Origin: an uncultured Alphaproteobacteria bacterium
GTDB lineage: Bacteria > Pseudomonadota > Alphaproteobacteria > HIMB59 > GCA-002718135
Assembly: GCA_902530685.1 (NCBI GenBank)
Contig: CACAAZ010000004.1
Coordinates: 1 to 62,569, forward strand
Reading direction: 5' to 3'
Length of the DNA: 62,569 nt
The notes under the pieces were generated by a model. It worked only from the letters and a program-made list of their open reading frames with translations, did no database searches and had not been told where the DNA came from. The position numbers and the translations under genes were made by a program. Positions 35,131-62,002 of the stretch are shown one piece after another; the first letter of the stretch is position 1; the number at the start of each line of letters is the position of its first letter.

Positions 35131-35132
35131 AA

Positions 35133-35411
35133 CTATTTTTCAAATACTTTTTGAAGTTGTGTGTGGCAAGGTTTAACACTCTTAATTTCATGAGTTATTG
35201 TTGAACGCTCGACTTCTAACCACATTCTACAACCATTTGAGTGTTGCCAAGTTTCTCTTTGAATGCCTTTGATATTTTCTCTAAAAAAGACTGCTTCAAC
35301 CCAATCTTTTTCTGGTGCATCTAAACTTGGATAAACTATTGATGCGTCACTTCCATAACTAAACTCGCTATGATCTCTATCTCCACAATAAGGGCATTTT
35401 ATTATTATCAT
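35133..35411 (-). CDS. soxD: sarcosine oxidase subunit delta
   Basis: CPYCG..EF and WQHSNGCRMW zinc-binding motifs. Confidence 0.92.
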   Translation of the reverse strand: MIIIKCPYCGDRDHSEFSYGSDASIVYPSLDAPEKDWVEAVFFRENIKGIQRETWQHSNGCRMWLEVERSTITHEIKSVKPCHTQLQKVFEK

Positions 35412-35414
35412 AAT

Positions 35415-41600: not shown

Positions 41601-42578
41601 TTATAACCTTGTACCTAAATTTTTTTTCATTGCGATATCAAAAGTAAACCTAGCTATAGCAGTATCCTGAACACCTGTGCCAGTTAAATCACATAAAGTG
41701 ATATCCTCTTTATTTTTTCTTCCTAATGCTGGATTTAAAATAACTTCTCCTATTTCATTAAAATTTTCATTTATGGAAATTATATTAGCCTTAATAGCGT
41801 GGTGTAATTCACCTAATACTGCGGTTTGAGACTGACTGTCAGGAATATAGGTATCACATTTTTTTATTATATCAGGATCTATTTCATTTTTTTCTTCAGC
41901 ATCTGAGCCCATGGCGGTTATGTGTAATCCTTTCTTCAACCATGCACTTTTAATTAAAGGTGACTTACTTGGTGTAGTTGTAACAACTATTTCTGATAGT
42001 TTAACTAATTCTTCAATTGAGGAAGATTTTTTTATATCAAGACCTAAATACTGAATTTCTCTTTCAAAATTAATCAGTTTTTCTCTATCTCGTGACCATA
42101 TAAATACTGTACTAATAGGACGAACTAATTTTAATGCTTCAAGTTGTAACTTTGCTTGTAAGCCAGCACCTATGATACCTGCTTTTGTTGAATCTGGGTT
42201 GGATAAATATTTTGCAGCGATTGATCCAGCAATTGCGGTACGAATATCTGTTAAATATCCTTCATCTAATAATATTGATTTAATAACACCTGTCTTAGAG
42301 TCTAATAATATCATCATACCATTGCTTGATGGAATACCAAGTTTAGGATTATCAAAAAAACCTGAAGCTATTTTTATTGCATAACTATCTAATCCTTCAA
42401 TGTAAGCTGCTTTAACATCAGTTTCACCATTATATTTATGAACATCAAGTCGTTGAATAGGCGGCATAATGGTATTTCCATCAGCTAAATTCTTAAAAGC
42501 ATCCTCAATAACGGGAATGAGCTGCTCATTTAGTTGAACACATTTCTTGATATCATCTAATTTTAAGAAAACTGTCAT
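41601..42578 (-). CDS. eutC: ornithine cyclodeaminase/mu-crystallin family, ectoine utilisation EutC
   Basis: GETDVKAAYIEG, IKIASGFFDNPKLG, LLDEGYLTDIRTA, GSDAEEKNE, CDLTGTGVQD. Confidence 0.85.
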   Translation of the reverse strand: MTVFLKLDDIKKCVQLNEQLIPVIEDAFKNLADGNTIMPPIQRLDVHKYNGETDVKAAYIEGLDSYAIKIASGFFDNPKLGIPSSNGMMILLDSKTGVIKSILLDEGYLTDIRTAIAGSIAAKYLSNPDSTKAGIIGAGLQAKLQLEALKLVRPISTVFIWSRDREKLINFEREIQYLGLDIKKSSSIEELVKLSEIVVTTTPSKSPLIKSAWLKKGLHITAMGSDAEEKNEIDPDIIKKCDTYIPDSQSQTAVLGELHHAIKANIISINENFNEIGEVILNPALGRKNKEDITLCDLTGTGVQDTAIARFTFDIAMKKNLGTRL

Positions 42579-43525
42579 AAAATCAATTTTGAAAATAATT
42601 CAGTATCAATATTACCACCACAAATTAAACAAATTATATTTTTACCTAAGTGTTTTGATAGATTGTCTTTTGCTACTATTACACTGGTCGCTGCTGCGCC
42701 CTCTGTTACTAATCTATGTTCGTGAAAATTTAATCGAATTCCTTCAGCTATTTTTTCCTCACTAACTAAAATAAAATCATCAATTGTTTTTTGAGCAATA
42801 TCAAAGGTATATTTATTTTCTAAACCTATACTACCGCCTAAACAATCAGCCAATGTTTCTAGTTCTTCTACATCGACTGGTTTACCATGCTTTAAACTTT
42901 CATACATAGATGGTCCTCTTTCCATAGAAACAGCAATTACTTTAATATCAGGTTTTTGCAATTTTAACGCGAGTGCAATTCCTCCAATTAATCCGCCACC
43001 TGAAGTTGGAATTATTACTGTATCTACTTCAGGAAAATCATTTAACATTTCTATACCGACAGTTCCCTGGCCTGCAATAACATCTTCGTCATCAAATGGA
43101 TGAATAAAAGGAATATTATTTTTATTTGAAATTTCTCTAGCATACATATCTGCTTCATCACTATTTGATCCATAAATTTCAACATTTGCTCCTAATGCTT
43201 CTATGGCTTCTTTTCTGTATTGTGGAACCATTTTTGACATATAAATTGTAGACTTAATACCCAGTTTACTCGAAGCAAAAGCAACACCTTTTCCATGGTT
43301 GCCTGTTGAAACAGCAATTACACCTTTCTGTTTTTCATCATTTGTTAAAGAAAGTAACTTATTTGTTGCACCTCTTAATTTAAATGAACCTGTTTTTTGA
43401 AGAGATTCTAATTTTAATTTAACGGTCCTATTTTGGGATAATAAATCGGATGTCACTAAAGGAGTATGGTTAATGTACGGTGAAATTTTTTTATGAGACT
43501 CTAAAATTCTATCTAATGAAATCAT
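42575..43525 (-). CDS. eutB: threonine-dehydratase-like hydroxyectoine utilisation dehydratase EutB
   Basis: LQKTGSFKLRGA, STGNHG, HPFDDEDVIAGQGT, SGGGL, TLADCLGGSIGLEN (EutB-type). Confidence 0.82.
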   Translation of the reverse strand: MISLDRILESHKKISPYINHTPLVTSDLLSQNRTVKLKLESLQKTGSFKLRGATNKLLSLTNDEKQKGVIAVSTGNHGKGVAFASSKLGIKSTIYMSKMVPQYRKEAIEALGANVEIYGSNSDEADMYAREISNKNNIPFIHPFDDEDVIAGQGTVGIEMLNDFPEVDTVIIPTSGGGLIGGIALALKLQKPDIKVIAVSMERGPSMYESLKHGKPVDVEELETLADCLGGSIGLENKYTFDIAQKTIDDFILVSEEKIAEGIRLNFHEHRLVTEGAAATSVIVAKDNLSKHLGKNIICLICGGNIDTELFSKLIL

Positions 43526-43534
43526 TTTGATATT

Positions 43535-44689
43535 TTATAATATATATAACCCTCTAGATGTTTTAGATAAAACCTCAACACCTTCATTAGTTATAATAAT
43601 ATTATCAATTAATCTTACTCCTATTTTATCTTCATAGCTAAATGCAGGAGGTTCAATTGCTATAACCATGCCTGGCTCAAATACACGCTCAGAAGATCCA
43701 TCGACTATTAAAGGTTCAACCCATGTTGGTGGAAATGCTATTCCCACTGCGTAACCTGTCATATGTAAACGGTACTTCTCCATACCTGCTTTTTCAATTA
43801 TTGATTTTGCTATATTATGTGCTTTTCTTACTTCTTTACCAGGACCCATCTCTTGAATACATGCGTCTCCAGCTTCTTTTATAACATTAAATATTTCTTT
43901 CATTCTTTCACTTGGTTTACCAACACACATATTTCTTCCAATTGTGCAACAATATCTTCTATAGTGAGATCCAAACTGTAAATGCATGAAATCTCCTTCT
44001 TGTAATTTTTTATCTGATGGTTCACCATGTGCAAACATAGATCTATCTCCAGTTAGAAAATTCATAGGACTAGAAGGTATATCTCCACCATTCATAAACA
44101 TTTCATAATGAATAGTGGCTGATATTTCTCTTTCGGATATTCCTGGCTTTATTGTTTTTAATCCAGCATTGAAACTTATATCTGCAATTTCAGAAGCTTT
44201 GCGAACATATTTCAATTCCGTTTCTGATTTTAGCAGTTTTATTTCTCCAACTAGATCTGTTGAAATATGAACAATTGAGTCTCCAAGTATTTCATTAATT
44301 TTGTTGTATTCAAATGGATGAAGGTAATAATAAGGTACTTCAATCCCAATTCTTTTTTTTAAGAGTTTTTTTTCTACCATTAGTTTGTATGTGGCATCAA
44401 TAGGATCTTCAGGTTCTTGTCCACCCCAGCCATATACTTCATCTGCCATGGAATGCTCATTCATCATTTCCACTTCAGATCTTCTAGTCATCATAATAAT
44501 TGGATCAGAATCAATTGGAAAAAGTAAAACTTCAAATTCTTGATATCCTTTTGCAGGAGTACCAATTAAATAATTTATGTTGGTTGGCGATATTACCATT
44601 AAAAGTTCAATATTAAATTTTTTCATCGAACTTCGAGTTTTGTCCCACCTTTCTCTAAATTCTTCTTTAGAAAAAAAATCTTTAGACAT
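43535..44689 (-). CDS. M24-fold hydrolase, EutD-like paralog
   Basis: FSKEEF..R, LKSETE, FAHG, HMTGYAVGIAFPPTW, PGMVIAIEP. Confidence 0.85.
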   Translation of the reverse strand: MSKDFFSKEEFRERWDKTRSSMKKFNIELLMVISPTNINYLIGTPAKGYQEFEVLLFPIDSDPIIMMTRRSEVEMMNEHSMADEVYGWGGQEPEDPIDATYKLMVEKKLLKKRIGIEVPYYYLHPFEYNKINEILGDSIVHISTDLVGEIKLLKSETELKYVRKASEIADISFNAGLKTIKPGISEREISATIHYEMFMNGGDIPSSPMNFLTGDRSMFAHGEPSDKKLQEGDFMHLQFGSHYRRYCCTIGRNMCVGKPSERMKEIFNVIKEAGDACIQEMGPGKEVRKAHNIAKSIIEKAGMEKYRLHMTGYAVGIAFPPTWVEPLIVDGSSERVFEPGMVIAIEPPAFSYEDKIGVRLIDNIIITNEGVEVLSKTSRGLYIL

Positions 44690-44694
44690 GAATA

Positions 44695-45852
44695 TTATGT
44701 CACTATCAAGCTGGTAGGTGTTTTATTGGTTAATACCTCAGCACCATTTTCAGTTAAAATTACTGTATTTGAATAAAAGAAATCTCCCTTACCACTCCAC
44801 ATCAACCAAGAATGAGTATGAAAAACCATACCTACTTTTAAAATTCTTTTACTATTTGGTGCTAGGCCTGTAACCATACTTCCTCCAACCCAGCTTGGAG
44901 GAAAAGCGATGCCAACTAAGTAGCCACAATGATGACGTCTATATTCAGGTAAACCAGCCGCATCAACAACATCTTGCCATGCTTGATATACATCTCCTGT
45001 AGTTGCTCCAGGCTTTATCGCTTTGAGTTGTGCTTCACCCGCCTTATTACTTAAATCTGCCGCAAAATCTGCATCATGAGGTTTTTCACCAATAAAAATA
45101 AGACGTCCCATTGGCGCTTGATATTTTTTATAAGAACCTGCGTGTTCAATATACAGTGCATCACCAGTCTTCATTACATCACCTCTCCAAGTCGTATGTT
45201 CTTCATTAAGACGATCAGTCATTCGAATAAATGGACCAAAGCCTGCGTATTCACTACCAGCTTTGATCATAGCAGAATGCATTTCTGCTGATATGTCTCT
45301 GTCACTTGCCCCATCCTTTGCTGCTTCTATCGCCGCTAAAGCACCTACATCAGCAGCTTCAGCAGCTTTTCTTGTATATTCGATTTCAAGGGGTGATTTT
45401 ACCTGCCTTAATTCATCAACTAATCCTGAACAGTTAGAGCAATTAGCTTTACTTAATTTGTTAGTTACTTCTTCGTAAATAGCTGGTGTTAAAAATAAAG
45501 AATTTTTTTCAATTCCAATATTTAAAGTATCGCATTTTGAGTCTTTAATTGCTTTGAAAATAAAATCTGCAGGATTTTCATAATCTTTAAATCCATAAAA
45601 GTTTGCATTTAAAACATATCTCTCAACAGATACTTGTTCCATTTGTCTACATATCAGAATCATATCTCCTTCTAATGGAACAAAAAGAACATGACATGCA
45701 AAGTAACCCCAATGGTCCAATCCAGTTAAATAATAAATATTTTCAGGAACAGCTACTAAAATAGCATCTAAGTTGTTTTTTTTCATTTCTTGACGAACAG
45801 CAACTAAACGACTTGCTAATTCTTCTTTAGGAAAAGCGTGAGTTATTGGCAT
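44695..45852 (-). CDS. M24-fold hydrolase, EutD-like paralog
   Basis: FPKEE..R, PENIYYLTG, VKSPLEI, EEHTTW, HHCGYLVGIAFPPSW; ATG 45852 has a GAGGAG SD (the ORF track starts at 45867). Confidence 0.85.
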   Translation of the reverse strand: MPITHAFPKEELASRLVAVRQEMKKNNLDAILVAVPENIYYLTGLDHWGYFACHVLFVPLEGDMILICRQMEQVSVERYVLNANFYGFKDYENPADFIFKAIKDSKCDTLNIGIEKNSLFLTPAIYEEVTNKLSKANCSNCSGLVDELRQVKSPLEIEYTRKAAEAADVGALAAIEAAKDGASDRDISAEMHSAMIKAGSEYAGFGPFIRMTDRLNEEHTTWRGDVMKTGDALYIEHAGSYKKYQAPMGRLIFIGEKPHDADFAADLSNKAGEAQLKAIKPGATTGDVYQAWQDVVDAAGLPEYRRHHCGYLVGIAFPPSWVGGSMVTGLAPNSKRILKVGMVFHTHSWLMWSGKGDFFYSNTVILTENGAEVLTNKTPTSLIVT

Positions 45853-45961
45853 ATATTTTCTCCTCAAATATTATATATTTAAATTTTAATTATAGCTTTG
45901 AAAAAAGCAATATTTAATCATATTAATAATGATATTATTTAATTTTTTTTAAAAGGTATTA

Positions 45962-48247
45962 ATGTCAAAAAAATTTATTGCCACTCACTGGGGTACATAC
46001 GTTCAAAAAGGTAAGGGTAATAATCTAAAAATAAATTATTGGACAAAAGATAAAAATCCCACAAAATTTGGATTAGATTTTTTAAATGCAGCACAAGATA
46101 ATTTAAGAATTACTCAGCCTTACATTCGTAAAGGCTGGTTAGAAAAGAATAAAACTAAGAGGGGTCAAGATAAATTTATACCAGTTTCATGGGAAATGGC
46201 ACTTTCTATTGCATCAGATGAATTATTAAAAGTCAAAAAAAAATATGGGAATAAAAGTATTTATGCTGGTTCATACGGTTGGGCAAGTGCTGGAAGGTTT
46301 CATCATGCTAAAAGTCAATTAAATCGTTTTTTTAATTTATTTGGTGGCTTTTCTTTTTCTACTCAAAGCTATTCTTACGCTGCTGCACAAACTCTACTTC
46401 CACATATTATAGGGAAAGATATTTATGGACTTCTTGATGATCATACATCTTGGAATGCTTTATCAAAAAATACTGAATTAATAGTTATGTTTGGAGGAAT
46501 GCCATTAAAAAATTCTCAAGTTTCTGCTGGCGGCGTTGGAACACACACAACAAAAGAGGGTTTGAAAAAATGCATAAAGAATAGAGTAAAGTTTATTAAT
46601 ATTAGTCCTTTAAAAACTGATGCACCATCATTTGTAAGTGCTAAACAAATTTTTATAAGACCAAATACTGATACTGCTTTAATGTTGTCTTTAGCCTATT
46701 TGCTAATAATTAATAATACTTACGATAAAAAATTTATAAGCAAATATACATTTGGATTTGATGAATTTAAAAAATATGTTCTCGGTAATAATAAAAATGA
46801 ACCTTGCACACCAAGATGGGCCTCTAAAATTACTGGAATATCAGAAAAAGGAATTAGCGATCTTTATAAAATTATTATTAGAAAAAAAACATTAATTTCA
46901 ATGTCATGGAGCCTACAAAGAGCTTCACATGGTGAACAACCACTCTGGATGGGTATTACTTTAGCTAGTATGCTTGGTCATATTGGCAGTGCTTCAGGAG
47001 GGTTTGGATTTGGTTATTCTGCAGTTAATAGCACAGGTGATAGCTTTAATAAAATTAAATGGCCAAGTTTACCTCAGTCAAAGAATAAAGTTACATCTTT
47101 TATACCAGTGGCAAGAATAACTGATATGTTAAATAATCCAGGTGGAAAATTTATATACAATGGAAAAAAAAGGAAATATCCAAATATTAAATTAATTTAT
47201 TGGGCTGGAGGTAACCCTTTTCACCATCATCAAGATTTGAATAAGCTTGTAAAAGCTTGGCAAAAACCTGAAACAATTATTGTTAATGAAATTTGGTGGA
47301 ATGCACAAGCTAGACATGCTGACATTATATTTCCAACCTGCACTAGTCTTGAAAAAAATGATATCATGCTAAATCCTAGAGATCCGACTATTATTGCTAG
47401 TCGAAAAGTTATAAAAAATTTTGGTCAATCAAAAAGTGATTTTGAAATTTTTTCATCGTTATCAAAAAAACTTGGATTTGGTAAAAAATTTACTAAAGGT
47501 TATAATGAGAAACAGTGGCTTAATTCATTATGGAATGAAGCAAGAGCCGAAGGCAAAAAAAATAAAATAAATTTACCTTCATTCAAATCATTCTGGAATA
47601 AAGGATTTTTTAAAATTCCTACATTAAACAAGAACAATATTATGTTTGAAGACTTTATAAATGATCCGATTGGGAATAAGCTTAATACATCTTCAGGTAA
47701 AATAGAAATTGTATCAAAGGTAATTAAAAGTTTTAAATTAAAAGACTGTAAAAAACACCCATATTGGTTTGAGCCTTATGAATGGATAGGTAATAAAAAA
47801 AGATTTAATTTACACCTCATATCGAATCAGCCAGAATTCAAATTGCATGGGCAACTAGATAATGCTTTCTTGAGTAAATTGAATAAAATTAAAAACAGAG
47901 AACCATTAATTATTAATCCGATAGATGCAAAAAAAAGAAAACTTAAAAATAATGACTTAGTTGAAGTTTATAATCAAAGAGGAAGGATGTTAGCTGGTAT
48001 TAGAATATCAAATAAAGTAATGGAAGGTGTTGTAGTTGTTTCTACAGGTTCTTGGTTTAGTCCATATAAAAAAGAAAAAATAGAAGCTCATGGTAATCCG
48101 AACGTATTGACTGGGGATATACCTACTTCTTCTTTCAGTCAGGCTCCAACATCAAATACAACTTTAGTCGAAGTCAAAAAAATATCAGAAGACTATAAAA
48201 ATCTAAAAACACTTATTTATGATTTTTCTCATTTAGAATTAAATTAA
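45962..48247 (+). CDS. BisC/TorA/DorA-family molybdopterin S-/N-oxide reductase, no export signal
   Basis: ATHWG, PYIRKGWL, SIYAGSYGWASAGRFHHA, SYS Mo-ligand region, IRPNTDTALM, WSLQRASHGEQ, YWAGGNPFHHHQD, HGNPNVLT. Confidence 0.9.
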   Translation: MSKKFIATHWGTYVQKGKGNNLKINYWTKDKNPTKFGLDFLNAAQDNLRITQPYIRKGWLEKNKTKRGQDKFIPVSWEMALSIASDELLKVKKKYGNKSIYAGSYGWASAGRFHHAKSQLNRFFNLFGGFSFSTQSYSYAAAQTLLPHIIGKDIYGLLDDHTSWNALSKNTELIVMFGGMPLKNSQVSAGGVGTHTTKEGLKKCIKNRVKFINISPLKTDAPSFVSAKQIFIRPNTDTALMLSLAYLLIINNTYDKKFISKYTFGFDEFKKYVLGNNKNEPCTPRWASKITGISEKGISDLYKIIIRKKTLISMSWSLQRASHGEQPLWMGITLASMLGHIGSASGGFGFGYSAVNSTGDSFNKIKWPSLPQSKNKVTSFIPVARITDMLNNPGGKFIYNGKKRKYPNIKLIYWAGGNPFHHHQDLNKLVKAWQKPETIIVNEIWWNAQARHADIIFPTCTSLEKNDIMLNPRDPTIIASRKVIKNFGQSKSDFEIFSSLSKKLGFGKKFTKGYNEKQWLNSLWNEARAEGKKNKINLPSFKSFWNKGFFKIPTLNKNNIMFEDFINDPIGNKLNTSSGKIEIVSKVIKSFKLKDCKKHPYWFEPYEWIGNKKRFNLHLISNQPEFKLHGQLDNAFLSKLNKIKNREPLIINPIDAKKRKLKNNDLVEVYNQRGRMLAGIRISNKVMEGVVVVSTGSWFSPYKKEKIEAHGNPNVLTGDIPTSSFSQAPTSNTTLVEVKKISEDYKNLKTLIYDFSHLELN

Positions 48248-48963
48248 CTAGAAAAATTAAAAAAATTTGAGATAAATTTTTTACCATCATGCTGATCTAA
48301 AAATTTACTTTCATATTTGTTAACATTTTTACTAAAGTATATGTCCCAAAGTTTTTTATTAGATTCAGGATGAAACTGTGAACTATACCAGTTATTACCA
48401 TGATCTATAACAATAGCAGGACTATCATCATGAGTGGCAAGAATACTATTTTTTTGATCATCTGCTGGAATTATATGAAGAGAATTACCAAAATGAAAAA
48501 TTGGGAATTCCGACATATCATAAAATAGTGGATGTGACTTACCTTTTTCAGTTAGTCTTATTTTATATGTTCCAGATAATGTACCTTGTAAACGATTTGT
48601 TAATTCACCGTTTCCAAATTGACTTGATAACATTTGATGTCCTCCACAAATTCCCAATAGTGGTTTTTTTGATTTACGATAAATTGCTAACCAACTACGA
48701 AGTTTGTGTAACCAACTTTTGTCTTCAGTTACTACATGAAAAGTACCGCCGAGAATAACACAATCGATATTCACAGATTCAGGGAGATCTTCGCCTCTAC
48801 AAATATCTACTCCAGATAGATTATATCCGGCTTCTTCTGCTATTGATCTATGCCAATCAACAGCCCAATGTTTTTCTTTACCAGTTTTACATAAACTAAC
48901 ATAATCCTCTGGATCATAATGTTCGCGCTCTCCAAGCATTGAAATAAAGAGTGCATTTTTCAT
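48244..48963 (-). CDS. class I glutamine amidotransferase-like protein (possible gamma-glutamyl hydrolase)
   Basis: LLGICGGHQ nucleophile Cys and QFHPE His-Glu triad; stand-alone. Confidence 0.85.
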   Translation of the reverse strand: MKNALFISMLGEREHYDPEDYVSLCKTGKEKHWAVDWHRSIAEEAGYNLSGVDICRGEDLPESVNIDCVILGGTFHVVTEDKSWLHKLRSWLAIYRKSKKPLLGICGGHQMLSSQFGNGELTNRLQGTLSGTYKIRLTEKGKSHPLFYDMSEFPIFHFGNSLHIIPADDQKNSILATHDDSPAIVIDHGNNWYSSQFHPESNKKLWDIYFSKNVNKYESKFLDQHDGKKFISNFFNFSS

Positions 48964-48997
48964 AATATATTTACTTTTGATTCTTTTAATAGTTTTG

Positions 48998-50167
48998 TTA
49001 GTTTATTCTTTCAATCCATTGATTAAATAACTTGTGTAAACACTCATTAGATTTTTCAAGTTCAGATAAACTAATATATTCATTAGCTTTGTGTGCTTGA
49101 TCTATTGAGCCTGGACCACATACAACAACATCCATATTCATTTGTTGAAATATACCAGCCTCAGTTCCAAACGAAATAACTCCAGTTGAATTTGATTTTA
49201 AAATTTCCAGCATAATTACTCTAGCTTGATTTTCCTCTCTTGGAATAAGCCCTGGTATTTCTCCTATTACTTCAGTTTCAATTTTAGCTTCTAAAAATTT
49301 AGATTTCATTTCAGGAAGAAGTTCCCTCTCACAATATGTTGAAATATTATTTTTTACAAATTGCAAATCTTCATTATTAACAGGTCTCATTTCCCAATCT
49401 ATTGAACATTGTCCAGCAATAACATTATGTGCAACACCTCCTTCAATTTTACCAGCCTGTATCGTTGACCAAGGAGGATCGAAGGGACTATCATTTGGTG
49501 TTCTTTCTTTTAATTCATTTGCTAATTCAAAAAGTTTATTTGTAAACAAAGATCCATACTGAATTGCGGATAGTCCTTTTTCAGGATTTGAAGCATGACC
49601 TTCCTTACCGTGAAAACAAGTGGTATATTCACAGTCACCTTTATGTGCTTCTATTACTTCCATACTTGTTGGCTCACCTATGATTACCATTGCAGGTTTA
49701 AATTTATATTTTTTTAGCTCTTCAGAAAGATGTCTTGCTCCAAAACATCCGATCTCTTCATCATATGTAAAGCTAAAATGAATTGGAAAATTTAATTTTT
49801 TATTTTTTAGAATTTCTGCAGTAGCTAGAGCTGAAGCAATAAATCCTTTCATATCACAACTACCTCTTCCATAAAGAAGCTCATCTTTTTGTGTAAGTTT
49901 AAAAGGATCTGATTTCCAACCTAGTTCTTTAGCAGGAACAACATCTGTATGACCTGACAATACTATCCCGCCATCAATCTCTGGTCCTATTGTTGCAAAA
50001 ATGTTAGCTTGTTTGTTATCTGCAGTAGTCATTACATCTACTTTTCCTCCAATAGATTTAATCTTATCAGATAAGTAATTAATCATTTCTAAATTGCTCT
50101 CTGAAGAAACTGTTGGATATGAAACCAAATCAGCTAATATTGAAACAGTTTTGTCAATTGTTCTCAT
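48998..50167 (-). CDS. argE: acetylornithine deacetylase family (M20A)
   Basis: VLSGHTDVVP, LYGRGSCDMKGF, YDEEIGC, IGEPT, FGTEAG, CGPGSIDQAHKANE. Confidence 0.88.
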   Translation of the reverse strand: MRTIDKTVSILADLVSYPTVSSESNLEMINYLSDKIKSIGGKVDVMTTADNKQANIFATIGPEIDGGIVLSGHTDVVPAKELGWKSDPFKLTQKDELLYGRGSCDMKGFIASALATAEILKNKKLNFPIHFSFTYDEEIGCFGARHLSEELKKYKFKPAMVIIGEPTSMEVIEAHKGDCEYTTCFHGKEGHASNPEKGLSAIQYGSLFTNKLFELANELKERTPNDSPFDPPWSTIQAGKIEGGVAHNVIAGQCSIDWEMRPVNNEDLQFVKNNISTYCERELLPEMKSKFLEAKIETEVIGEIPGLIPREENQARVIMLEILKSNSTGVISFGTEAGIFQQMNMDVVVCGPGSIDQAHKANEYISLSELEKSNECLHKLFNQWIERIN

Positions 50168-50264
50168 TTACAAGTAAAAATCTATACACTAATTTAATTA
50201 ACTGAATATAAGAAAAGCCTTAAACTTATATATTTTTCATTATTTTTTGGAGAAGAAAACTAAA

Positions 50265-50279
50265 ATTGTTGTATACAAT
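50265..50279. promoter_or_regulatory. putative operator ATTGT-N5-ACAAT (EnuR/EhuR-like) upstream of ehuB
   Basis: ATTGTTGTATACAAT inverted repeat, containing the palindrome TTGTATACAA, in the argE/ehuB divergent spacer. Confidence 0.55.
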
Positions 50280-50336
50280 CATAAATTTACCAGTAAAAAT
50301 ATCTCTAACTAAACAATTATTTAGGAGGGAAATGAT

Positions 50337-51167
50337 ATGAGATCATTAATAATTGCAATTACAATTATACTTACATCTTTTTCAATAAATGCTGAGTCAT
50401 TATCTGAAAAAGTTGCAGCAGGTGGAAAACCATCGCTCGGATTTGCTACGGCTGTTCCTTGGGGTTATCCTGGTGAAAATGGTGAGCCATTAGGTTTTGT
50501 TAATAAAATAGCTTTAACAATACTTGAAGAAATGGGAATCAATGAAGTTGATACTTCCGTTAATGAGTGGGCTGGCTTAATTCCTGGTCTTAACGCTGGT
50601 CGTTACGACATAATTACGGGTGGTATGTATATTCTTAAAAGTAGATGCGAGAATATAGATTTCTCTGATCCAATTGGATACTTTGGAGATGCTATGATGG
50701 TTCCTGCTGGAAATCCAAAAGGTATTCATAACTATGAAGATGTTGTAAGAACAGGTGCTACTCTTGTGACTGGTATTGGTTTTAATACAGTTGAAGCAGC
50801 AAAAAAATACGGAGTTCCTGATAGCCAAATGCTACTTGTGGATGGTGAAGTAGGAATTCTAGCAGCTATGCAAGCAGGTAGAGCTGATGTTGCAGTACAT
50901 ACTGTTTTTAGTGTTCAAGAACATGTTGAAATTTCTGATGGAAAATTTGAACAAACTGATGCTACAAAAATGCCCAAAGAAGTAATGAATGTAGTTGGTA
51001 TTGGTTTCAGAAAATCTGATTCAGATTTCAAAGAAGAATTCAACAAAGCACTAGCAAAAACTATTGGTGGTGAAAAATGGATGGCAAGAACTGCAGAGTA
51101 TGGATACACTGCAGCTCAATTACCTCCAGAAGGTTTCACAACTGAATATGCTTGTGCTAATAAATAA
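50337..51167 (+). CDS. ehuB: ectoine/hydroxyectoine ABC transporter solute-binding protein
   Basis: Signal peptide, PWGY, EWAGLIPGLNAGRYDIITGGMYILKSRC, VPAGNPKGIHNYED, GFRKSD; AGGAGG SD. Confidence 0.82.
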   Translation: MRSLIIAITIILTSFSINAESLSEKVAAGGKPSLGFATAVPWGYPGENGEPLGFVNKIALTILEEMGINEVDTSVNEWAGLIPGLNAGRYDIITGGMYILKSRCENIDFSDPIGYFGDAMMVPAGNPKGIHNYEDVVRTGATLVTGIGFNTVEAAKKYGVPDSQMLLVDGEVGILAAMQAGRADVAVHTVFSVQEHVEISDGKFEQTDATKMPKEVMNVVGIGFRKSDSDFKEEFNKALAKTIGGEKWMARTAEYGYTAAQLPPEGFTTEYACANK

Positions 51168-51179
51168 TTAAACTTTCTT

Positions 51180-51216
51180 AACTCAGGTAATATAGATTGC
51201 CTGAGTTTTTGATTTT
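51180..51216 (+). terminator. intrinsic terminator/attenuator between ehuB and ehuC
   Basis: AACTCAGGTAAT-atag-ATTGCCTGAGTT (one G-U pair) followed by TTTGATTTT. Confidence 0.8.
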
Positions 51217-51232
51217 CCAAGGATAACCAATT

Positions 51233-51904
51233 TTGAATTTTTTTAGTTTTGTATTTGAGTACGGCCCTAAATTTACATCTGCCGCAATAATTACTGCTCA
51301 AGTTTTTATTTATTCATCATTACTTGCAGTATTAATTTCACTTATTTTTGGAATAATGAGGTTATCAAAAAATATAATTATTCAATCAATTGCAACTATA
51401 TATATCGAGTTCTATCGTGGAACTTCATTAATCATCCAAATGTTTTGGATATATTATGTACTTCCTTTGTTTGGAGTTCCTTTGCCAGCTTTACTAGCTG
51501 GTGTTTTAGCCTTAGGTATGAATTTTGGTGCTTATGGCGCAGAGGTATTTAGAGCAGGTATTTTAGCAGTACCCAAAGGACAGTGGGAAGGTGCATTAGC
51601 TCTCAATTTTAGTAAAAGTAAAAGAATGCAAAGAATTATTATACCTCAAATATATCCAATAATACTTCCTCCTGCAGCAAACCTTGCAGTAGAATTACTT
51701 AAGGGTACAGCTCTAGTATCTTTAATTACGCTTGTAGATTTAATGTTTGTAGCTAAGCAAATTAATATGATGACTTGGCTTTCCGCCCAGTCATTTGGAT
51801 TAGCGCTTATAATTTATTTTGTTATGGCAAGATTTGTTCTTGTGCCTTTTTTACGATGGTTAGAATTATTGGCAGCAAAAAAAGTTGGTAGAGGAAAAAT
51901 TTAA
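51233..51904 (+). CDS. ehuC: ectoine ABC transporter permease (TTG start)
   Basis: YIEFYRGTSLIIQMFWIYYVLP, GAYGAEV.RAG, GQWE, ELLKGTALVSLIT. Confidence 0.85.
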   Translation: MNFFSFVFEYGPKFTSAAIITAQVFIYSSLLAVLISLIFGIMRLSKNIIIQSIATIYIEFYRGTSLIIQMFWIYYVLPLFGVPLPALLAGVLALGMNFGAYGAEVFRAGILAVPKGQWEGALALNFSKSKRMQRIIIPQIYPIILPPAANLAVELLKGTALVSLITLVDLMFVAKQINMMTWLSAQSFGLALIIYFVMARFVLVPFLRWLELLAAKKVGRGKI

Positions 51905-51906
51905 TT

Positions 51907-52584
51907 ATGTACGTAGAATGGAGATGGGAATGGACATTTGAAATATTACCTCAAATGCTATGGGCTACTCTAAATACTTTTTTGGCAGCTGGAGTTGGGT
52001 ACGCAATAGCAGCAGTTGTTGGTATTATATTAATGTTAGGACAAAGAACACCTTATAAAATAGTAAATATTGTAATAAGAGAAATCGTCGAATTTATTCG
52101 TTCCACACCTCTTCTTGTCCAATTATTTTTTGTTTATTTTGTTGCTCCACAATTTGGAATAATTCTTTCAGCTTGGGTTTCTGCAATGATTACAATTGGG
52201 CTTCATTACGGTACATATCTTTCTGAGGTTTATAGAGGTGCTCTGGAAGGAGTCCAAAGAACTCAGTGGGAAGCATGCAAAGCTCTTAACTTTTCAAGTG
52301 GTTATACTTACCGTAAAATAATACTTCCTCAAGCATTCCCAATTGCTATTCCAGGAATGGGAAATTACCTTGTTGGAATTTTTAAAGATACTCCTTTACT
52401 TGCTACAATAGGAGTTGCAGAACTGTTCTTTACAGCAAATGCCATAGGAGCATATACATATAGATACCTCGAGCCATACACAATGGTAGGTGTCATATTC
52501 TTAGTTATTTCATTACCCACAGCATTTGGTATAAGAAGACTTGAAGCAGCAGTTAATAAAGCACAAGGAAAATTTAATGTATAA
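51907..52584 (+). CDS. ehuD: ectoine ABC transporter permease
   Basis: W.WEWTFEILP, EFIRSTPLLVQL, GLHYGTYLSEVYR, GNYLVGIFKDTP, YRYLEP. Confidence 0.88.
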   Translation: MYVEWRWEWTFEILPQMLWATLNTFLAAGVGYAIAAVVGIILMLGQRTPYKIVNIVIREIVEFIRSTPLLVQLFFVYFVAPQFGIILSAWVSAMITIGLHYGTYLSEVYRGALEGVQRTQWEACKALNFSSGYTYRKIILPQAFPIAIPGMGNYLVGIFKDTPLLATIGVAELFFTANAIGAYTYRYLEPYTMVGVIFLVISLPTAFGIRRLEAAVNKAQGKFNV

Positions 52585-52599
52585 AGGTTTAAAAATAAT

Positions 52600-53394
52600 A
52601 TGAATCAAGATGATAATTCAAGTGACATTTTAGTAAAATTTTCTGAAGTAACAAAACAATATGGAGATTTAGTTGTTTTAGATAAATTAAATCTGGAAAT
52701 AAAAAAAAATGAAATGGTTTCAATTATAGGCCCATCTGGTTCTGGAAAAACAACAGTCTTAAGAGTTTTAATGACATTAGAAAAAATAAATAATGGTGTC
52801 ATTTATTTGGATAATGAACCATTAACGCATATGAATGAAAATGGAAAATTAATAGAAGCTAGTGAAAAATATATCAGGGAAAGAAGATCAAAAATAGGTA
52901 TGGTCTTTCAACAATTTAATTTATTTCCCCATATGACTGCATTGCAAAATTGTATAGAGGCACCTGTGCATGTTTTAGGTCTTAAAAAAGAAGATGCCGA
53001 AGAAAGAGCGCTTGAATTACTAGAACTTGTTGGACTCTCTGATAAAAAAGATGAGCATCCTACTAGATTATCAGGTGGGCAACAGCAACGAGTTGCTATT
53101 GCAAGAGCTTTAGCAATGAGGCCAAAAGTAATGTTATTGGATGAAATTACTTCAGCACTTGACCCTGAAGTTGTTGGAGAAGTATTAAATGTTATTCGTT
53201 CTCTTAATAAAGAACATAACCTTACTATGATTATGGTGACCCATCAGATGGGGTTTGCGAGAGAAATTTCAGATCGTGTTTGTTTTTTTTATGATGGTAA
53301 AATTTTTGAACAAGGCCCTCCAGAGAGATTATTTGGAAATCCTCAAAATGAAAGGACTAAACAATTTCTTCATGCTGTTTTGGATGCAAACTAA
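52600..53394 (+). CDS. ehuA: ectoine ABC transporter ATP-binding protein
   Basis: GPSGSGKTTVLRVLMTLE, LSGGQQQRVAIARALAMRP, DEITSALDPE. Confidence 0.88.
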   Translation: MNQDDNSSDILVKFSEVTKQYGDLVVLDKLNLEIKKNEMVSIIGPSGSGKTTVLRVLMTLEKINNGVIYLDNEPLTHMNENGKLIEASEKYIRERRSKIGMVFQQFNLFPHMTALQNCIEAPVHVLGLKKEDAEERALELLELVGLSDKKDEHPTRLSGGQQQRVAIARALAMRPKVMLLDEITSALDPEVVGEVLNVIRSLNKEHNLTMIMVTHQMGFAREISDRVCFFYDGKIFEQGPPERLFGNPQNERTKQFLHAVLDAN

Positions 53395-53395
53395 T

Positions 53396-54151
53396 TTATA
53401 TTTTAAATAAATTTCCAAACCCATTAATTTTATTTTCTTTAATATTTGATAATTTTAAAGAGTCCCATATCAATGCTTGGTTACTAGAAATAACATTAAT
53501 CTTAAAATCATTTTCTATATCTTCTAGAATATCAACGATTTTTAATGCTGTACAAGATACAAATAAACCATCAATATTTTTAAAGTTAATTTTGGAAATT
53601 TGATCCTTTAAACTCTTTAAACTAACTTGAGCTATTTCAGAGTCGTAATTTAGATTAAAAGAACTAAAGGACTCAATCTCAATATTGAAATTTTTAAGAT
53701 AATTAAAAACGGTTAAATTTACATCCTTAGGATAAGGAGTTAAGACAGCAATTTTTTGAAATTTTAATTTTTTAAAAGCTTTTAAAGCTGCTGTGATAGG
53801 AGTTGTAACTAATGTATTAGGCTTTGATTTACGAATTTGATTTGTTATTTCTTTTTCACCAATTGCAATAGTTCCAGATGTACAACCATATGCAACCACA
53901 TCAATATTTTGACCAGGTAATATTTGATCACAGACTTCAGGTATATAATTAGCCATTTTTAAATAATTTTCATGATTTAAAGGGTTATTGAAAGGTATCC
54001 TATTTACAAATATGTCTATTGGAAGAGAATGACATATTTTCCTGAAATCTTGTTCTATTGTAAAATCTGTTGAAAGAGCAATAAGTCCTATCCTTGGATT
54101 AGTTGTATTTTCCAAAATAGGATATAATATATTTTGATTGAAGTTTTTCAT
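53396..54151 (-). CDS. eutA: Asp/Glu racemase / maleate isomerase family, EutA-like
   Basis: RIGLIALSTDFTIEQDF, AYGCTSG and FVSCTAL (two catalytic Cys), LTPY, SSNQA. Confidence 0.8.
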   Translation of the reverse strand: MKNFNQNILYPILENTTNPRIGLIALSTDFTIEQDFRKICHSLPIDIFVNRIPFNNPLNHENYLKMANYIPEVCDQILPGQNIDVVAYGCTSGTIAIGEKEITNQIRKSKPNTLVTTPITAALKAFKKLKFQKIAVLTPYPKDVNLTVFNYLKNFNIEIESFSSFNLNYDSEIAQVSLKSLKDQISKINFKNIDGLFVSCTALKIVDILEDIENDFKINVISSNQALIWDSLKLSNIKENKINGFGNLFKI

Positions 54152-55254
54152 TACTGATTTGGAAAATAATCTTCACATTCACCTTCGCGGTAGACATCTG
54201 TTGTTGCACAATGGAGACTTCCTCCAAAAGCATAGACATCTCTAAAAGGAACTGGAATAACATCCATACCAAAATTTTCCATTTGTTTAATCATTTTTTC
54301 TTCAGAAGCTTCAACACAAATGGTTTTTGGATTTAGAATCAAAACGTTCATGGATAGCCATATAGATGAGTAGCACATTGGCGGAGGAGTGTTATGGATT
54401 GAAGGTGCCGCCTCGTGTATTTCCCATTTATTATCGTCAAATATTTTTCTTTGTTCATTTGATATTTTTCTGTTTGGGTTCATTATAATAACTCCAGGTT
54501 TTATTGGCGTAAAACATGCATCAATATGAGTAGGTATTAGTTCTCCAGGTAAATTAATCTGATGAATACGATGATTTGGATAATGTCTTCTTAACCAATC
54601 TAAACCTTTTAAATTTGATGTAAAATTGTTGTGATAAAAAAGATCTTTTCCAAAGCGTAAAATTTCTGCTGCATCAAAAAGTGGTTCTTTTTCTGTCAAT
54701 ATCATATCTCTATTTTCAATTTTTTTATATCTTTCTTCTTCAGTTATGCCTTCAGGAAGATAATTAGACTTATAAGATTGATTAGTTAATCTTGGTTTTG
54801 GTGCTGACTCCCATCGCATATTTTTATCTTCTGAATAATATTTTTCAAGTAATGGTCTATACGCAAGATATTCAAACCATCTACATCTATAAGACATGGG
54901 TGCTTCTAGCATTTCATTACCTACTGTTAATATAACATCCCTTGGTGGCATACAACCAAACATACCTTCGTTTGACCAATCTGGAGTATTTATTGTTTGA
55001 CTAAAATCTATTGGAGTTGGTCTATCAACTTTTATATCAAGATTATTCAATATTTTTACGAAATTGTCTAATTGAATATTAGCTTTATCAATTGCATCCT
55101 TTGGTCTTGGCCCATGAGATCCAATCATACCGCTATCTTTACTAATTTTTGGAGCAAGAGCGGGTTCAATTGGTGGGATATTTGAATTTTCTACTCTACC
55201 AACTATTACATGTTTAAGAGAATCCCATTCATTCCACGAATTTACTATTGTCAT
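54151..55254 (-). CDS. amidinotransferase (glycine/inosamine-phosphate amidinotransferase family)
   Basis: VNSWNEWDSLKHVIVGR, PPRD, FDAAE, HIDA, WLSMNVL, GGSLHCAT: Asp-His-Cys triad intact; TAATG overlap with eutA. Confidence 0.9.
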   Translation of the reverse strand: MTIVNSWNEWDSLKHVIVGRVENSNIPPIEPALAPKISKDSGMIGSHGPRPKDAIDKANIQLDNFVKILNNLDIKVDRPTPIDFSQTINTPDWSNEGMFGCMPPRDVILTVGNEMLEAPMSYRCRWFEYLAYRPLLEKYYSEDKNMRWESAPKPRLTNQSYKSNYLPEGITEEERYKKIENRDMILTEKEPLFDAAEILRFGKDLFYHNNFTSNLKGLDWLRRHYPNHRIHQINLPGELIPTHIDACFTPIKPGVIIMNPNRKISNEQRKIFDDNKWEIHEAAPSIHNTPPPMCYSSIWLSMNVLILNPKTICVEASEEKMIKQMENFGMDVIPVPFRDVYAFGGSLHCATTDVYREGECEDYFPNQ

Positions 55255-55295
55255 TATAAGTTCCTTAATTTAAATTAAGTATATATTTATAGAAT

Positions 55296-56747
55296 ATGGA
55301 ATTAAATAATAAATCTCTGTTTAAAGAAAAATGTTATGTCAATGGTAGTTGGGTTGAAAGCCAATCCGGTGATTTTTTAGAAGTAAATAATCCCGCAACA
55401 CAAGAGATCATCGGGAAAGTCCCTAAATTTACAAAAGATGAAACAAAAAAAGTAATAGAAAATGCGAATGATGCTTTTCAAACATGGAAAAACACAACTG
55501 CAAAAGAAAGATCTGTTATTCTTAAAAAATGGGGAGATTTAATTGTTGAAAACGTAGAAGATCTTGCAAAAATTATGACAATAGAACAAGGTAAACCTGT
55601 AGCAGAAGCTAAAGGTGAAATATTAATGGGAGCATCATACATTGAATTTTATGCAGAAGAGGCAAAAAGAGTATATGGCGATATAATACCAGACCCAAGA
55701 CCTGGAAAAAGAATAGTTGTAATTAAACAACCTGTAGGAGTTGTTGGAGCCATAACTCCATGGAATTTCCCCAACTCAATGATAACTAGGAAATGTGCAG
55801 CTGCTTTAGCAGTAGGTTGTACAGCGGTTGTTAAACCAGCAAGTCAAACTCCTTATTCGGCTTTGGCAGTTGCTGAATTAGCACATAGGGCTGGTTTTCC
55901 TAAAGGTGTGTTTAATATTATTACAGGATCTGCAAAAGATATAGGTTTAGAATTAACTAAAAATCCAATGGTTCGAAAAATTTCATTTACAGGTTCGACC
56001 GAAGTTGGCAAAATATTAATGGAACAAAGTGCTTCAACTGTAAAAAAGGTTTCAATGGAATTGGGTGGTCATGCACCTTTCATAGTATTTGATGATGCTG
56101 ATCTGAATGAAGCTGTAACTGGAGCAATGCAAAGTAAGTTTAGAAATAGTGGTCAAACTTGTATTTGTTCAAATCGAATTTTTGTTCATGAGAAAGTTTA
56201 TGATGAATTTTTAGAAAAATTTTCAGCTGAGGTGAAAAAAATTAAAGTTGGAAATGGATTAGATGAAGGCGTTGTGTCAGGTCCACTTATAGATAAATCA
56301 TCTTTAGATAAAGTAATTGATCATGTGCAAGATGCAGTAAATACGGGTGCAAAAATAGCCGTAGGTGGTGACGTTCATTCACTTGGTGGTAATTTTTATC
56401 AACCTACAGTCTTATCACATGTGACAACTAAAGCTAAAATTACATTTGAGGAAACATTTGGTCCAGTTGCACCGTTATATAAATTTTCAAATGATGAAGA
56501 AGTAATAAATTTAGCAAACGATACTCCTTATGGTTTAGCATCCTATTTTTATTCAAGAGATATTAGTAGAGTATGGAAAATTGCTGAAGCTTTGGAATAT
56601 GGTATTGTGTCAATTAATAATGGACTTCCAACAATTGCTGAAATACCGTTTGGGGGAGTAAAAGAATCTGGAATGGGAAGAGAAGGATCAAAGTACGGTT
56701 TAGACGATTATCTAGTTATTAAATACATTTCAATGGGCGGTATTTAA
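55296..56747 (+). CDS. gabD: NAD(P)-dependent succinate-semialdehyde dehydrogenase family (GabD/DoeC-like)
   Basis: EQGKP..EAKGEI, AEEAKRVYGD, ITPWNFP, MELGGHAP, SKFRNSGQTC, EETFGPVAP. Confidence 0.85.
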   Translation: MELNNKSLFKEKCYVNGSWVESQSGDFLEVNNPATQEIIGKVPKFTKDETKKVIENANDAFQTWKNTTAKERSVILKKWGDLIVENVEDLAKIMTIEQGKPVAEAKGEILMGASYIEFYAEEAKRVYGDIIPDPRPGKRIVVIKQPVGVVGAITPWNFPNSMITRKCAAALAVGCTAVVKPASQTPYSALAVAELAHRAGFPKGVFNIITGSAKDIGLELTKNPMVRKISFTGSTEVGKILMEQSASTVKKVSMELGGHAPFIVFDDADLNEAVTGAMQSKFRNSGQTCICSNRIFVHEKVYDEFLEKFSAEVKKIKVGNGLDEGVVSGPLIDKSSLDKVIDHVQDAVNTGAKIAVGGDVHSLGGNFYQPTVLSHVTTKAKITFEETFGPVAPLYKFSNDEEVINLANDTPYGLASYFYSRDISRVWKIAEALEYGIVSINNGLPTIAEIPFGGVKESGMGREGSKYGLDDYLVIKYISMGGI

Positions 56748-60536: not shown

Positions 60537-61907
60537 TTATATTAAAAATAAGGTTGCTAACCCTAAAAAAGATAGGAATCCGAAAACATCCGTTATTGTA
60601 GTTAATATTACTGCTGAAGCTAATGCTGGATCAATTTTCATTTTTTCTAGAGCAAGAGGTATTATTGTTCCAGCAAAACCTGCTAGTATCAAGTTTAATA
60701 CCATGGCTAAACCTATGATTACACCTAACATAAAATCTTGAAACCAATATATAGAAACTAGTGATATTATTACTGCAAATATTATACCATTTATACCGCC
60801 TATTAATGTTTCTTTGGTAATTATTTTTAGAGCATTACTTGTCGTTAGTTCTTTTACAGCTAGCGCTCTTACTGCAACAGTTAAAGTTTGAGTCCCAGCA
60901 TTTGCGCCCATAGATGCAACTATCGGCATTAAGATTGCTAAAGCAACCACCTTCTCAATAGCTGCTTCAAATAAACCTATAACTATAGAAGCGACAACTG
61001 CTGTCATTAAATTTACAATTAGCCAGGAAATTCTTGATTTTGTTGTATCTACAACAGAATTATAAATATCAGTATGGCCAACACCACCTAGCTTTAAAAT
61101 ATCTTCTTCTCTTTCCTCTTCAATGACATCCACAACATCATCAACAGTAATTGATCCTAATATTTTTTTTTGCTCATCAATTACTGGTGCACTAACTAAT
61201 CCATATTTGCTGAATTGGTATGCAACTTCTTCTTGATCAGTATTGATCTCAATCGCACGCAGTTCTTTATTCTTAAGAGAACTTAGTTTGACATTTCTTT
61301 TTGACCCCATTAATCTTCCTAAAGGAACTACTCCTTCAACTTTTCTATCTTTATCTATTAAATAAATATCATAAAAATCTTCAGGCAATTTTTTTTTGTT
61401 TCCTCTAAGATAATCTATAGCTTGACCAACATTCCACCATTGATCTATTGATACAAATTTTCTTTGCATCAATCTACCTGCGGAGTCTTCAGGATAATTT
61501 AATCCTTGTTCAATTAAGTTTCTTTCTTCTTCTTCTAAATTCTCTAAAAAGGTATTTTGATCTTCTTTTTCTAAATCTTCAACTAAATCAACTGCATCAT
61601 CAATATCTAGTTGTTTAGCATTGCTGGCCAACTGCTTAATATCAAGTGTTTCAACTATTTCATCTCTAAGACTATCATTTAAATATGTTAATATTTCTGG
61701 ATCAAATCTATCTCTGATAATATTTAATAGACTTAATCTTAGAACAGGATCAAGATTTTGCAGTAATTCTGCAATATCTGCATTATGAATATCATCTAAA
61801 TATTTAAAAATTTTATTATTTTGATAATTTTCTAAATAACTAGTGACTAATTCAACCGAATCAATCACAGAAAATTTGTTTTTTGTTATATCTAATTTAT
61901 TTTCCAT
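60537..61907 (-). CDS. mgtE: magnesium transporter MgtE
   Basis: MgtE N-domain, YPEDSAGRLM, CBS pair, MPIVASMGANAGTQ, DPALAS, TTITDVFGF; true start is ATG 61907 (the ORF-track extension runs into the tRNA). Confidence 0.94.
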   Translation of the reverse strand: MENKLDITKNKFSVIDSVELVTSYLENYQNNKIFKYLDDIHNADIAELLQNLDPVLRLSLLNIIRDRFDPEILTYLNDSLRDEIVETLDIKQLASNAKQLDIDDAVDLVEDLEKEDQNTFLENLEEEERNLIEQGLNYPEDSAGRLMQRKFVSIDQWWNVGQAIDYLRGNKKKLPEDFYDIYLIDKDRKVEGVVPLGRLMGSKRNVKLSSLKNKELRAIEINTDQEEVAYQFSKYGLVSAPVIDEQKKILGSITVDDVVDVIEEEREEDILKLGGVGHTDIYNSVVDTTKSRISWLIVNLMTAVVASIVIGLFEAAIEKVVALAILMPIVASMGANAGTQTLTVAVRALAVKELTTSNALKIITKETLIGGINGIIFAVIISLVSIYWFQDFMLGVIIGLAMVLNLILAGFAGTIIPLALEKMKIDPALASAVILTTITDVFGFLSFLGLATLFLI

Positions 61908-61915
61908 AATTAATG

Positions 61916-62002
61916 TGGTGCGGCTGAGAAGACTTGAACTTCCACAGGATAAATCCCACAGCGACCTCAACGCTGCGCGTATACCAATTCCGCCACAGCC
62001 GC
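61916..62002 (-). tRNA. tRNA-Leu (anticodon GAG) with encoded CCA
   Basis: GCGGCTG acceptor stem pairs with CAGCCGC-ACCA; D-loop GGAATTGGTA; anticodon arm CAGCG-TTGAGGT-CGCTG; long variable arm; T-loop GTTCAAGT. Confidence 0.96.

Follow-up and report, generated by a model that had tools for sequence, protein, structure and literature searches.

An amidinotransferase gene joined to a eutA-like gene in a putative catabolic array of marine Alphaproteobacteria

The window considered here is a contig of 62,569 nucleotides (CACAAZ010000004.1 of assembly GCA_902530685.1) from an uncultured alphaproteobacterium of the HIMB59 lineage. Its minus strand carries two genes that share a nucleotide: one for an amidinotransferase (AMT) of the AGAT family, and downstream of it one for a protein resembling EutA of ectoine catabolic clusters. 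To our knowledge, the bacterial amidinotransferases known so far all act at the outset of toxin or antibiotic synthesis. The present one is intact and forms a fixed part of what appears to be a catabolic array in abundant, genome-streamlined marine bacteria.

The amidinotransferase and its EutA-like neighbor

AMT (367 residues; 54151..55254, minus strand) matches solved amidinotransferases over its full length. Human AGAT (1jdw) aligns with residues 4-364 of the 367 (E 2e-75 in a search of PDB sequences), followed by SxtG (9.7e-66), HsvA (1.5e-58), and StrB1 (2.3e-54). The family assignment rests on this search, because Pfam and NCBIfam models miss the protein: neither gives a match at E<=1e-3, and at E<=10 Pfam yields weak matches to PAD_porph (0.0015) and ADI (0.093). 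Alignment to human AGAT bears out the original prediction of an intact Asp-His-Cys triad. The motifs FDAAE (residues 193-197), HIDA (residues 243-246), and LHC place Asp195, His243, and Cys349 opposite Asp254, His303, and Cys407, the AGAT/StrB1 triad as named, in human numbering, in the available text of PMC3684758. The same alignment makes PRD, HID, NPNR, and YSS the counterparts of human Asp170, Asp305, Arg322, and Ser354/355. We take Asp170 and Asp305 to bind guanidinium, the two aspartates together holding its two terminal nitrogens, and Arg322 and Ser355 to form the carboxylate site. The triad and these counterparts are kept in all 29 aligned rows of the window's subclade. Judged by its sequence, AMT is a genuine, active-looking member of the AGAT/StrB1 family.

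AMT is single-copy, both in the window's genome and in each of five relatives. (The other 367-residue open reading frame (ORF) of the window, at 23780-24883, was rejected as a paralogue; it encodes an unrelated binding protein.) Of 3974 candidates from a protein search, 2826 qualified as relatives at E<=0.001; at source they are annotated as 'glycine amidinotransferase' or, evidently wrongly, as 'serine/threonine protein kinase'. Vertebrate AGAT/GATM (PDB 1JDW/1JDX) shares with AMT full-length homology, the triad, and the binding-residue counterparts. The two differ in three respects: AMT is of the bacterial cytosolic type, without a mitochondrial leader; its lid, at residues 238-242, reads E-L-I-P-T rather than the D-P-N-P-M (Asn300, Met302) of AGAT; and its setting is a catabolic-type operon instead of creatine synthesis.

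The EutA-like protein (251 residues; 53396..54151, minus strand) belongs to the superfamily of Asp/Glu racemases, arylmalonate decarboxylases, and maleate isomerases, and carries the cysteine motifs GCTSG and SCTAL. Its best family is TIGR02990, at 204.9 bits, under the equivalog cut-off of 318; Pfam Amdase matches at 7.5e-18 (65.5 bits, above 25.9). Among structures in the PDB it comes closest to arylmalonate decarboxylase and maleate isomerase (E 4e-9 to 1.5e-8). Elsewhere, the window's genome encodes a further EutA-like paralogue, 30% identical (G000:C23:347-1033), and the same paralogue is present in some relatives that lack AMT.

The AMT stop codon had been predicted to overlap the eutA start codon as TAATG, and direct reading of the sequence agrees: the plus strand is c-a-t-t-a at 54149-54153, the AMT TAA and the EutA-like ATG sharing base 54151. 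Of the 61 genomes with an adjacent AMT-EutA pair, 59 share this spacing.

Conservation of the pair was surveyed across 123 genomes, each at least 70% complete, from the two families of the window's order. AMT is carried by 62 of 73 genomes, and seven of eight genera, in the window's family, and by none of 49 in the sister family. An EutA orthologue (at least 54% identity) accompanies it in 61 of the 62 carriers, and is found in none of the 11 non-carriers, four of which have only a paralogue at 26-30% identity. By search coordinates, and counting the window, 61 of 63 carriers have EutA immediately downstream of AMT in the same orientation. EutA is broken in two carriers; in one genome (G071) it is on another contig; and in another (G034) AMT is truncated and EutA gave no match. 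These genomes are kin and hence not independent, so the counts should be read as a description of conservation rather than as a statistical test.

Among the 29 closest loci, EutA directly follows AMT in 26, and is fragmented in one; one locus stops at a contig end, and one lacks EutA. EutB and EutC continue after EutA in 25. The synteny with both eutA and ehu on which the original prediction turned was thus found in part. Linkage to eutA extends to six of the seven AMT-bearing genera in the family; the window's own EutA/EhuA arrangement recurs in none of the 29 close loci. A different Ehu-like set, comprising a molybdenum oxidoreductase followed by EhuA-B-C(-D), comes after EutC in four of them. 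Linkage of AMT to ehu is therefore recurrent, not fixed.

A conserved array resembling ectoine clusters

In five genera (g1, g2, g6, g7, and g8) AMT heads an array on one strand: AMT, EutA, EutB, EutC, a pyridoxal phosphate (PLP) enzyme, M20, M24, a proline-racemase-like protein, and soxB, with a succinate-semialdehyde dehydrogenase (SSADH) gene divergent. Regions from five further genera were compared, and the array is kept at AMT identities down to 63%. Two genera deviate, one with AMT-EutA-EutD-like-DmdA, the other with AMT-EutD-like-DmdA, its EutA-EutB-EutC-PLP segment being on a separate contig. Upstream of AMT the neighbor is SSADH throughout the AMT-bearing genera of the family; downstream it is always eut-type.

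In the window, SSADH (55296..56747, plus strand; TIGR01780 at 724.6 bits, cut-off 646) is separated from AMT by 41 bp (55255..55295), which include AAGGAA ahead of the AMT ATG and match no Rfam family; the divergent arrangement holds in seven of seven AMT-bearing genera. The rest of the array lies on the minus strand. An EutB-like dehydratase (42575-43525; 374 bits, below 413) and an EutC-like cyclodeaminase or imine reductase (41601-42578) directly follow EutA in relatives. Against NCBIfam models, the EutC-like protein scores 448.8 for 'cyclodeaminase', above the cut-off of 408, and 417 for EutC, below 471.65. Beyond these lie a CysK-fold PLP enzyme of 481 residues (40152-41597); an M20 amidohydrolase (38995-40149); an M24 protein without the usual metal ligands (37815-38969); a proline-racemase-family protein (36793-37815; trans-3-hydroxy-L-proline dehydratase model at 434 bits, cut-off 550); a soxB/A/G-like oxidase (31605-36683); and an EutD-like hydrolase (30414-31589; 460.7 bits, below 613). 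Set against Pyrococcus prolidase, in the metal-ligand numbering that we assume for that enzyme, the M24 protein has C, G, R, D, and D at the five ligand positions, and probably lacks a metal center, as in creatinase. It is 39-40% identical to an M24 protein whose gene adjoins AMT in a Desulfosarcinaceae metagenome-assembled genome (MAG; L041).

A block of about 9.9 kb (43535..53394) splits EutA from EutB in this window only. It contains two DoeA_2-like M24 genes, a bisC/TorA-family molybdenum oxidoreductase, a class-I GATase-like gene, an ArgE-type deacetylase, and genes for an EhuB-, EhuC-, EhuD-, EhuA-like ABC importer (50337..53394, plus strand), which run convergent with EutA. EhuA, C, and D score above NCBIfam cut-offs, and EhuB below (162.6, cut-off 190.9). 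The block is most simply an insertion, because the contiguous EutA-EutB state is common to deeper genera. Its importer is 65-90% identical (EhuA 90%) to one that two Pelagibacteraceae genomes (L070:13647-16700 and L079) carry about 4.5 kb away from AMT. These genomes belong to another order than the window's; similarity across orders could reflect transfer between lineages.

How closely does this ensemble resemble the canonical ectoine cluster, ehuABCD-eutABCDE-ssd-atf? (For the make-up of ectoine and hydroxyectoine clusters, the available parts of PMC5924519 and bioRxiv 10.64898/2026.03.05.709796 were used.) Shared features are EhuA, C, and D above cut-offs, the EutA-, EutB-, EutC-, and EutD-like genes, the ssd-type SSADH, and the eutABC order typical of Alphaproteobacteria. 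Yet EutA, B, C, and D, along with EhuB, all score under equivalog cut-offs, and the amidinotransferase, the CysK-fold enzyme, the M20/M24 pair, the proline-racemase-like protein, and sox are additions. The 53 ORFs scanned, from 55 non-nested ORFs in the window (two, truncated at its ends, lay outside the scan), contain no domain of an EutE-family deacetylase or of an aminotransferase (Atf), and no regulator was seen in the window. (Class-III aminotransferases number 3-6 per genome, none at this locus.) The set EhuABCD, EutABC, EutD, EutE, Ssd, and Atf is therefore incomplete here, and the amidinotransferase sets the eut-like array apart from an ordinary ectoine pathway.

The same 53 ORFs contain no polyketide synthase (PKS) or nonribosomal peptide synthetase (NRPS) domains, in accord with the prediction that no such genes lie nearby. 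An Rfam scan of the whole window found one tRNA as its sole RNA, and a riboswitch or other RNA element was rejected as a candidate.

Lids, recombination, and distant relatives

The '300-flap' lid reads DPNPM in human AGAT, DMHPM in AmtA, and DIFPS in CyrA, and its positions 300 and 302 govern specificity, according to the available text of PMC4887976 and PMC3684758. The window's lid resembles that of CyrA/AoaA (cylindrospermopsin) in having a hydrophobic residue at 300 and a small hydroxyl residue at 302, as compared from published descriptions without aligning CyrA. CyrA, however, lies in a toxin PKS/NRPS cluster, and the window has none. The lid neither shows nor excludes an Arg:Gly reaction, because ELIPT is nearer to DIFPS, and CyrA itself is described, in the parts of its source available, as a strict Arg:Gly enzyme.

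Within the family, genera g1, g2, and g6 have [DE]LIPT; g7, DMYPI; g8, DPFPT; and g3 and g5, DPYPI, a lid also found in most Pelagibacteraceae, Desulfobacterales, Hyphomicrobiales, and Eggerthellaceae. A tie between lid and EutA context was rejected: the full array occurs with DLIPT, DMYPI, and DPFPT, and the AMT-EutA-EutD-like form with DPYPI. A quick tree by maximum likelihood unites the [DE]LIPT group as one clade (SH-aLRT 100), whose stem measures 0.85 changes per site. The group differs from the rest at 18 fixed positions, several of them beside catalytic motifs. At these several sites other bacteria keep the human residue; examples are T247C (after His243-Asp245), L293M (before Ser296-Ser297), and F235L and P239L (lid region). 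A substrate change in the window's subclade is possible on these grounds.

At the nucleotide level the window and its closest relative (L002) are 92-100% identical across ROK, SSADH, and the 5' two thirds of AMT. Inside AMT identity runs at 92-97% over the 5' ~700 nt and 78-87% over the 3' ~400 nt (54156-54556), and then at 64-76% over EutA. A recombination breakpoint at the AMT-EutA junction was thus rejected, as the drop falls within AMT near 54556. On these identities AMT is a recombination mosaic, whose incoming tract brought the 3' third of AMT and EutA together.

More distant relatives occupy other settings. Across 120 distinct AMT loci, a creatinase gene is directly upstream in 24, a DMT transporter gene is present in 46, and a threonine-aldolase-like gene is downstream in 21. 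These elements are united in a Pelagibacteraceae operon, MobA-MoeA-DMT transporter-creatinase-AMT-threonine-aldolase-like (L078:3947-10155 and 23 other distinct loci), whose creatinase matches the Pseudomonas enzyme (PDB 1CHM) at E 5e-159. Creatinase, AMT, and aldolase of this operon could all yield glycine or a glycine precursor. The Pelagibacteraceae orthologues are 62-65% identical to the window's AMT, with the same triad and binding residues and a catabolic context; they differ in their DPYPI lid and in having no adjacent EutA or SSADH. Eight Pelagibacteraceae loci have a Lys/Arg/Orn-type binding protein near AMT, many have GshB/GCS2 within about 5 kb, and a Lys/Arg/Orn-type ABC importer with a flavin monooxygenase is another AMT context.

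Farther afield, an Anaerolineae MAG (L084) has AsnC-AMT-AMT-creatininase (creatininase TIGR04448 at 313.8, above 235). A Desulfosarcinaceae genome (L082) has, before AMT, a carbamoyltransferase of the ornithine/aspartate transcarbamylase fold ('OTC-like'), whose best NCBIfam match is aspartate carbamoyltransferase (TIGR00670 at 246.7, above 236.95); in a Desulfobacterales MAG (L150), carbamate kinase follows AMT (TIGR00746 at 375.4, above 358.25). Both systems use the same enzyme family as the window, which however lacks the OTC-like and carbamate kinase genes. TRAP and other ABC importers adjoin AMT in further loci. No biosynthetic cluster stands beside AMT in the contexts examined, all of which concern uptake or catabolism. 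Racemase coupling in another lineage (L109, with an Asp-racemase-type gene after AMT) was rejected, since this single case matches EutA at superfamily level only (BLASTP E 0.007). An Anaerolineaceae MAG (L031:7992-11609) encodes three tandem, very divergent AMT paralogues, without the Arg322 counterpart and with Trp before the catalytic His, which probably take different substrates.

Two candidate roles were rejected for the window's clade. A creatinase partner fails because the clade contains no true creatinase, the best M24 match being 31% identical; and a role for AMT as arginase substitute is made needless by an arginase-family gene in five of the five genomes checked. Urease was found in one of five related genomes. 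Seawater metatranscriptome contigs match AMT exactly (151 nt) in two runs; four seawater RNA runs in all yield contigs over parts of AMT and SSADH, none of which reaches EutA or the junction.

What the amidinotransferase may do

The reading that we prefer, at roughly even probability, is that AMT is a catabolic or salvage transamidinase heading an array for the breakdown of nitrogen-rich, osmolyte-type compounds, rather than part of secondary metabolism. Cys349 would take the amidino group from a guanidino donor and hand it on to an amino-group acceptor, for which ornithine (yielding arginine) and glycine are the likeliest candidates; the de-amidinated skeleton would remain for the Eut-like enzymes and SSADH. 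The ~9.9-kb insertion with its Ehu-type importer would have cut the window's array, leaving AMT-EutA as a two-gene unit. Which way the group moves, from what donor and to what acceptor, and any chemical hand-over to EutA are inferences on our part. Transfer onto ornithine may be favored because of the OTC-like and carbamate kinase neighbors in anaerobes, and would conserve nitrogen in cells without urease; with urease scarce among the related genomes, a hydrolase that freed urea would lose that nitrogen. Transfer to or from glycine or sarcosine would fit the creatinase and aldolase neighbors in Pelagibacter.

Several observations weigh against this interpretation. Overlapping genes are ordinary in the window, which is about 97% coding with 31% GC: of 35 same-strand neighbor pairs, 10 overlap and 19 are no more than 10 nt apart. 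The overlap is thus unremarkable alone, yet the junction is conserved. Gene order, however, is conserved throughout the family, backbone genes included, and the kept AMT-EutA adjacency is therefore partly inheritance. AMT is separable from EutA in genus g3, where EutA is on another contig and AMT is followed by the EutD-like gene and DmdA, and Pelagibacteraceae AMT has no adjacent EutA in 50 of 51 more distant loci. The scanned ORFs of the window include no aminotransferase for the canonical ectoine route. Finally, properties of the relatives may not hold here, because of the subclade's long stem and its 18 fixed differences. Of the original proposal of a catabolic enzyme paired with EutA, the catabolic part stands as the better reading, since every context is one of uptake or catabolism, without PKS or NRPS. 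Its link to ehu proved not to be conserved, and EutA, though its linkage is conserved, is not the sole possible partner: one genus has AMT-EutD-like, and Pelagibacteraceae do without an adjacent EutA.

Some credit, though well short of an even chance, goes to a stand-alone transamidinase of the arginine/guanidinoacetate (or creatine) type, serving arginine and glycine supply and merely packed tightly against EutA at a backbone site. The same backbone, MgtE-BioY-ROK-SSADH, lies beside AMT in seven of seven AMT-bearing genera, and the partner varies between EutA and EutD-like. The GshB/GCS2 genes near many Pelagibacteraceae AMTs, the creatinase and aldolase that accompany Pelagibacter orthologues, the frequent overlaps, and a lid resembling DIFPS of the strict Arg:Gly enzyme CyrA (available text of PMC4887976) point the same way. 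The linkage itself resists such an account: the junction is kept in those 59 of 61 genomes, from six genera; the two genes are present or absent together; and whatever follows AMT is eut-type. An arginine (or hydroxy-arginine) funnel, in which AMT would form ornithine or hydroxy-ornithine, and the EutB-like and EutC-like (pyrroline-2-carboxylate-reductase-type) enzymes would convert it to proline, would account for the EutC-like protein's preference for the 'cyclodeaminase' model. It would also suit the proline-racemase-family protein and the prolidase/creatinase-fold M24 of the array, and the Lys/Arg/Orn-type binding proteins of Pelagibacteraceae. It is unlikely, because the arginase-family gene in each of the five genomes checked leaves no substitute needed, and the amidino acceptor, the fate of the product, and the role of EutA go unaccounted for.

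Two further alternatives seem to us very improbable. An amidinohydrolase paired with EutA, releasing urea or opening an ectoine-type cyclic amidine, would draw on a superfamily that includes hydrolases (hence the weak PAD_porph and ADI matches) and on an array otherwise like those for ectoine and hydroxyectoine. AMT, though, is far closer to transferases (AGAT at E 2e-75) than to any hydrolase; both presumed guanidinium aspartates are kept, which fits guanidine over methyl-amidine, as is the carboxylate-site arginine; and the array already has creatinase- and EutD-type M24 hydrolases. Equally hard to credit is the synthesis from arginine of guanidinoacetate, or of another guanidino solute or metabolite, even though StrB1, SxtG, CyrA/AoaA, AmtA, and HsvA, the characterized bacterial relatives, are all biosynthetic in the available parts of the sources. 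No PKS, NRPS, methyltransferase, or other tailoring gene is present in the scanned ORFs of the window, and the neighbors here and in relatives are importers and hydrolases.

Returning to the preferred salvage transamidinase, a broader and distinctly speculative version, which we consider rather doubtful, would extend it to the whole AMT family as a means of amidino-group salvage in the ocean's most abundant heterotrophs, moving amidino groups from dissolved guanidino compounds to ornithine. Candidate donors would include guanidinoacetate, creatine, guanidinobutyrate, and taurocyamine; arginine would form without ATP, and glycine, sarcosine, or GABA (gamma-aminobutyrate) would be freed for catabolism. 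The creatinase-linked Pelagibacter form, run in reverse with sarcosine as its acceptor, would make creatine, and the window's subclade would have moved to another donor tied to the Eut-like enzymes. Salvage of this kind would amount to an ATP-free arginine route and a new marine nitrogen-cycle sink for guanidino compounds. Boysen et al. 2022 (PMC9321204, in its available text) report creatine labeled from sarcosine in seawater and invoke an 'unidentified enzyme'; a sarcosine-accepting AMT, if real, would explain that labeling. Were AMT to salvage amidino groups, it would be a testable candidate for the unexplained creatine-sarcosine link in seawater isotope tracing. Creatinase is listed as core to SAR11 subgroup 1a in the available text of PMC3686209, and in the corresponding part of one SAR11 paper GATM appears as a taurine-to-taurocyamine marker only. 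Our searches of open-licence PMC papers and bioRxiv preprints yielded no publication on the array.

Two observations concern the window at large. Two glutamine-synthetase-fold genes at 3182-4507 and 14389-15747 (minus strand), which have dehydrogenases and a TRAP transporter as neighbors, may serve amine catabolism through gamma-glutamylation. The opening codons of the ORF called as MgtE (60537-61970, TTG start) overlap the tRNA (61919-62002, minus strand; Rfam 52.7 bits), and the true MgtE start therefore probably lies further in.

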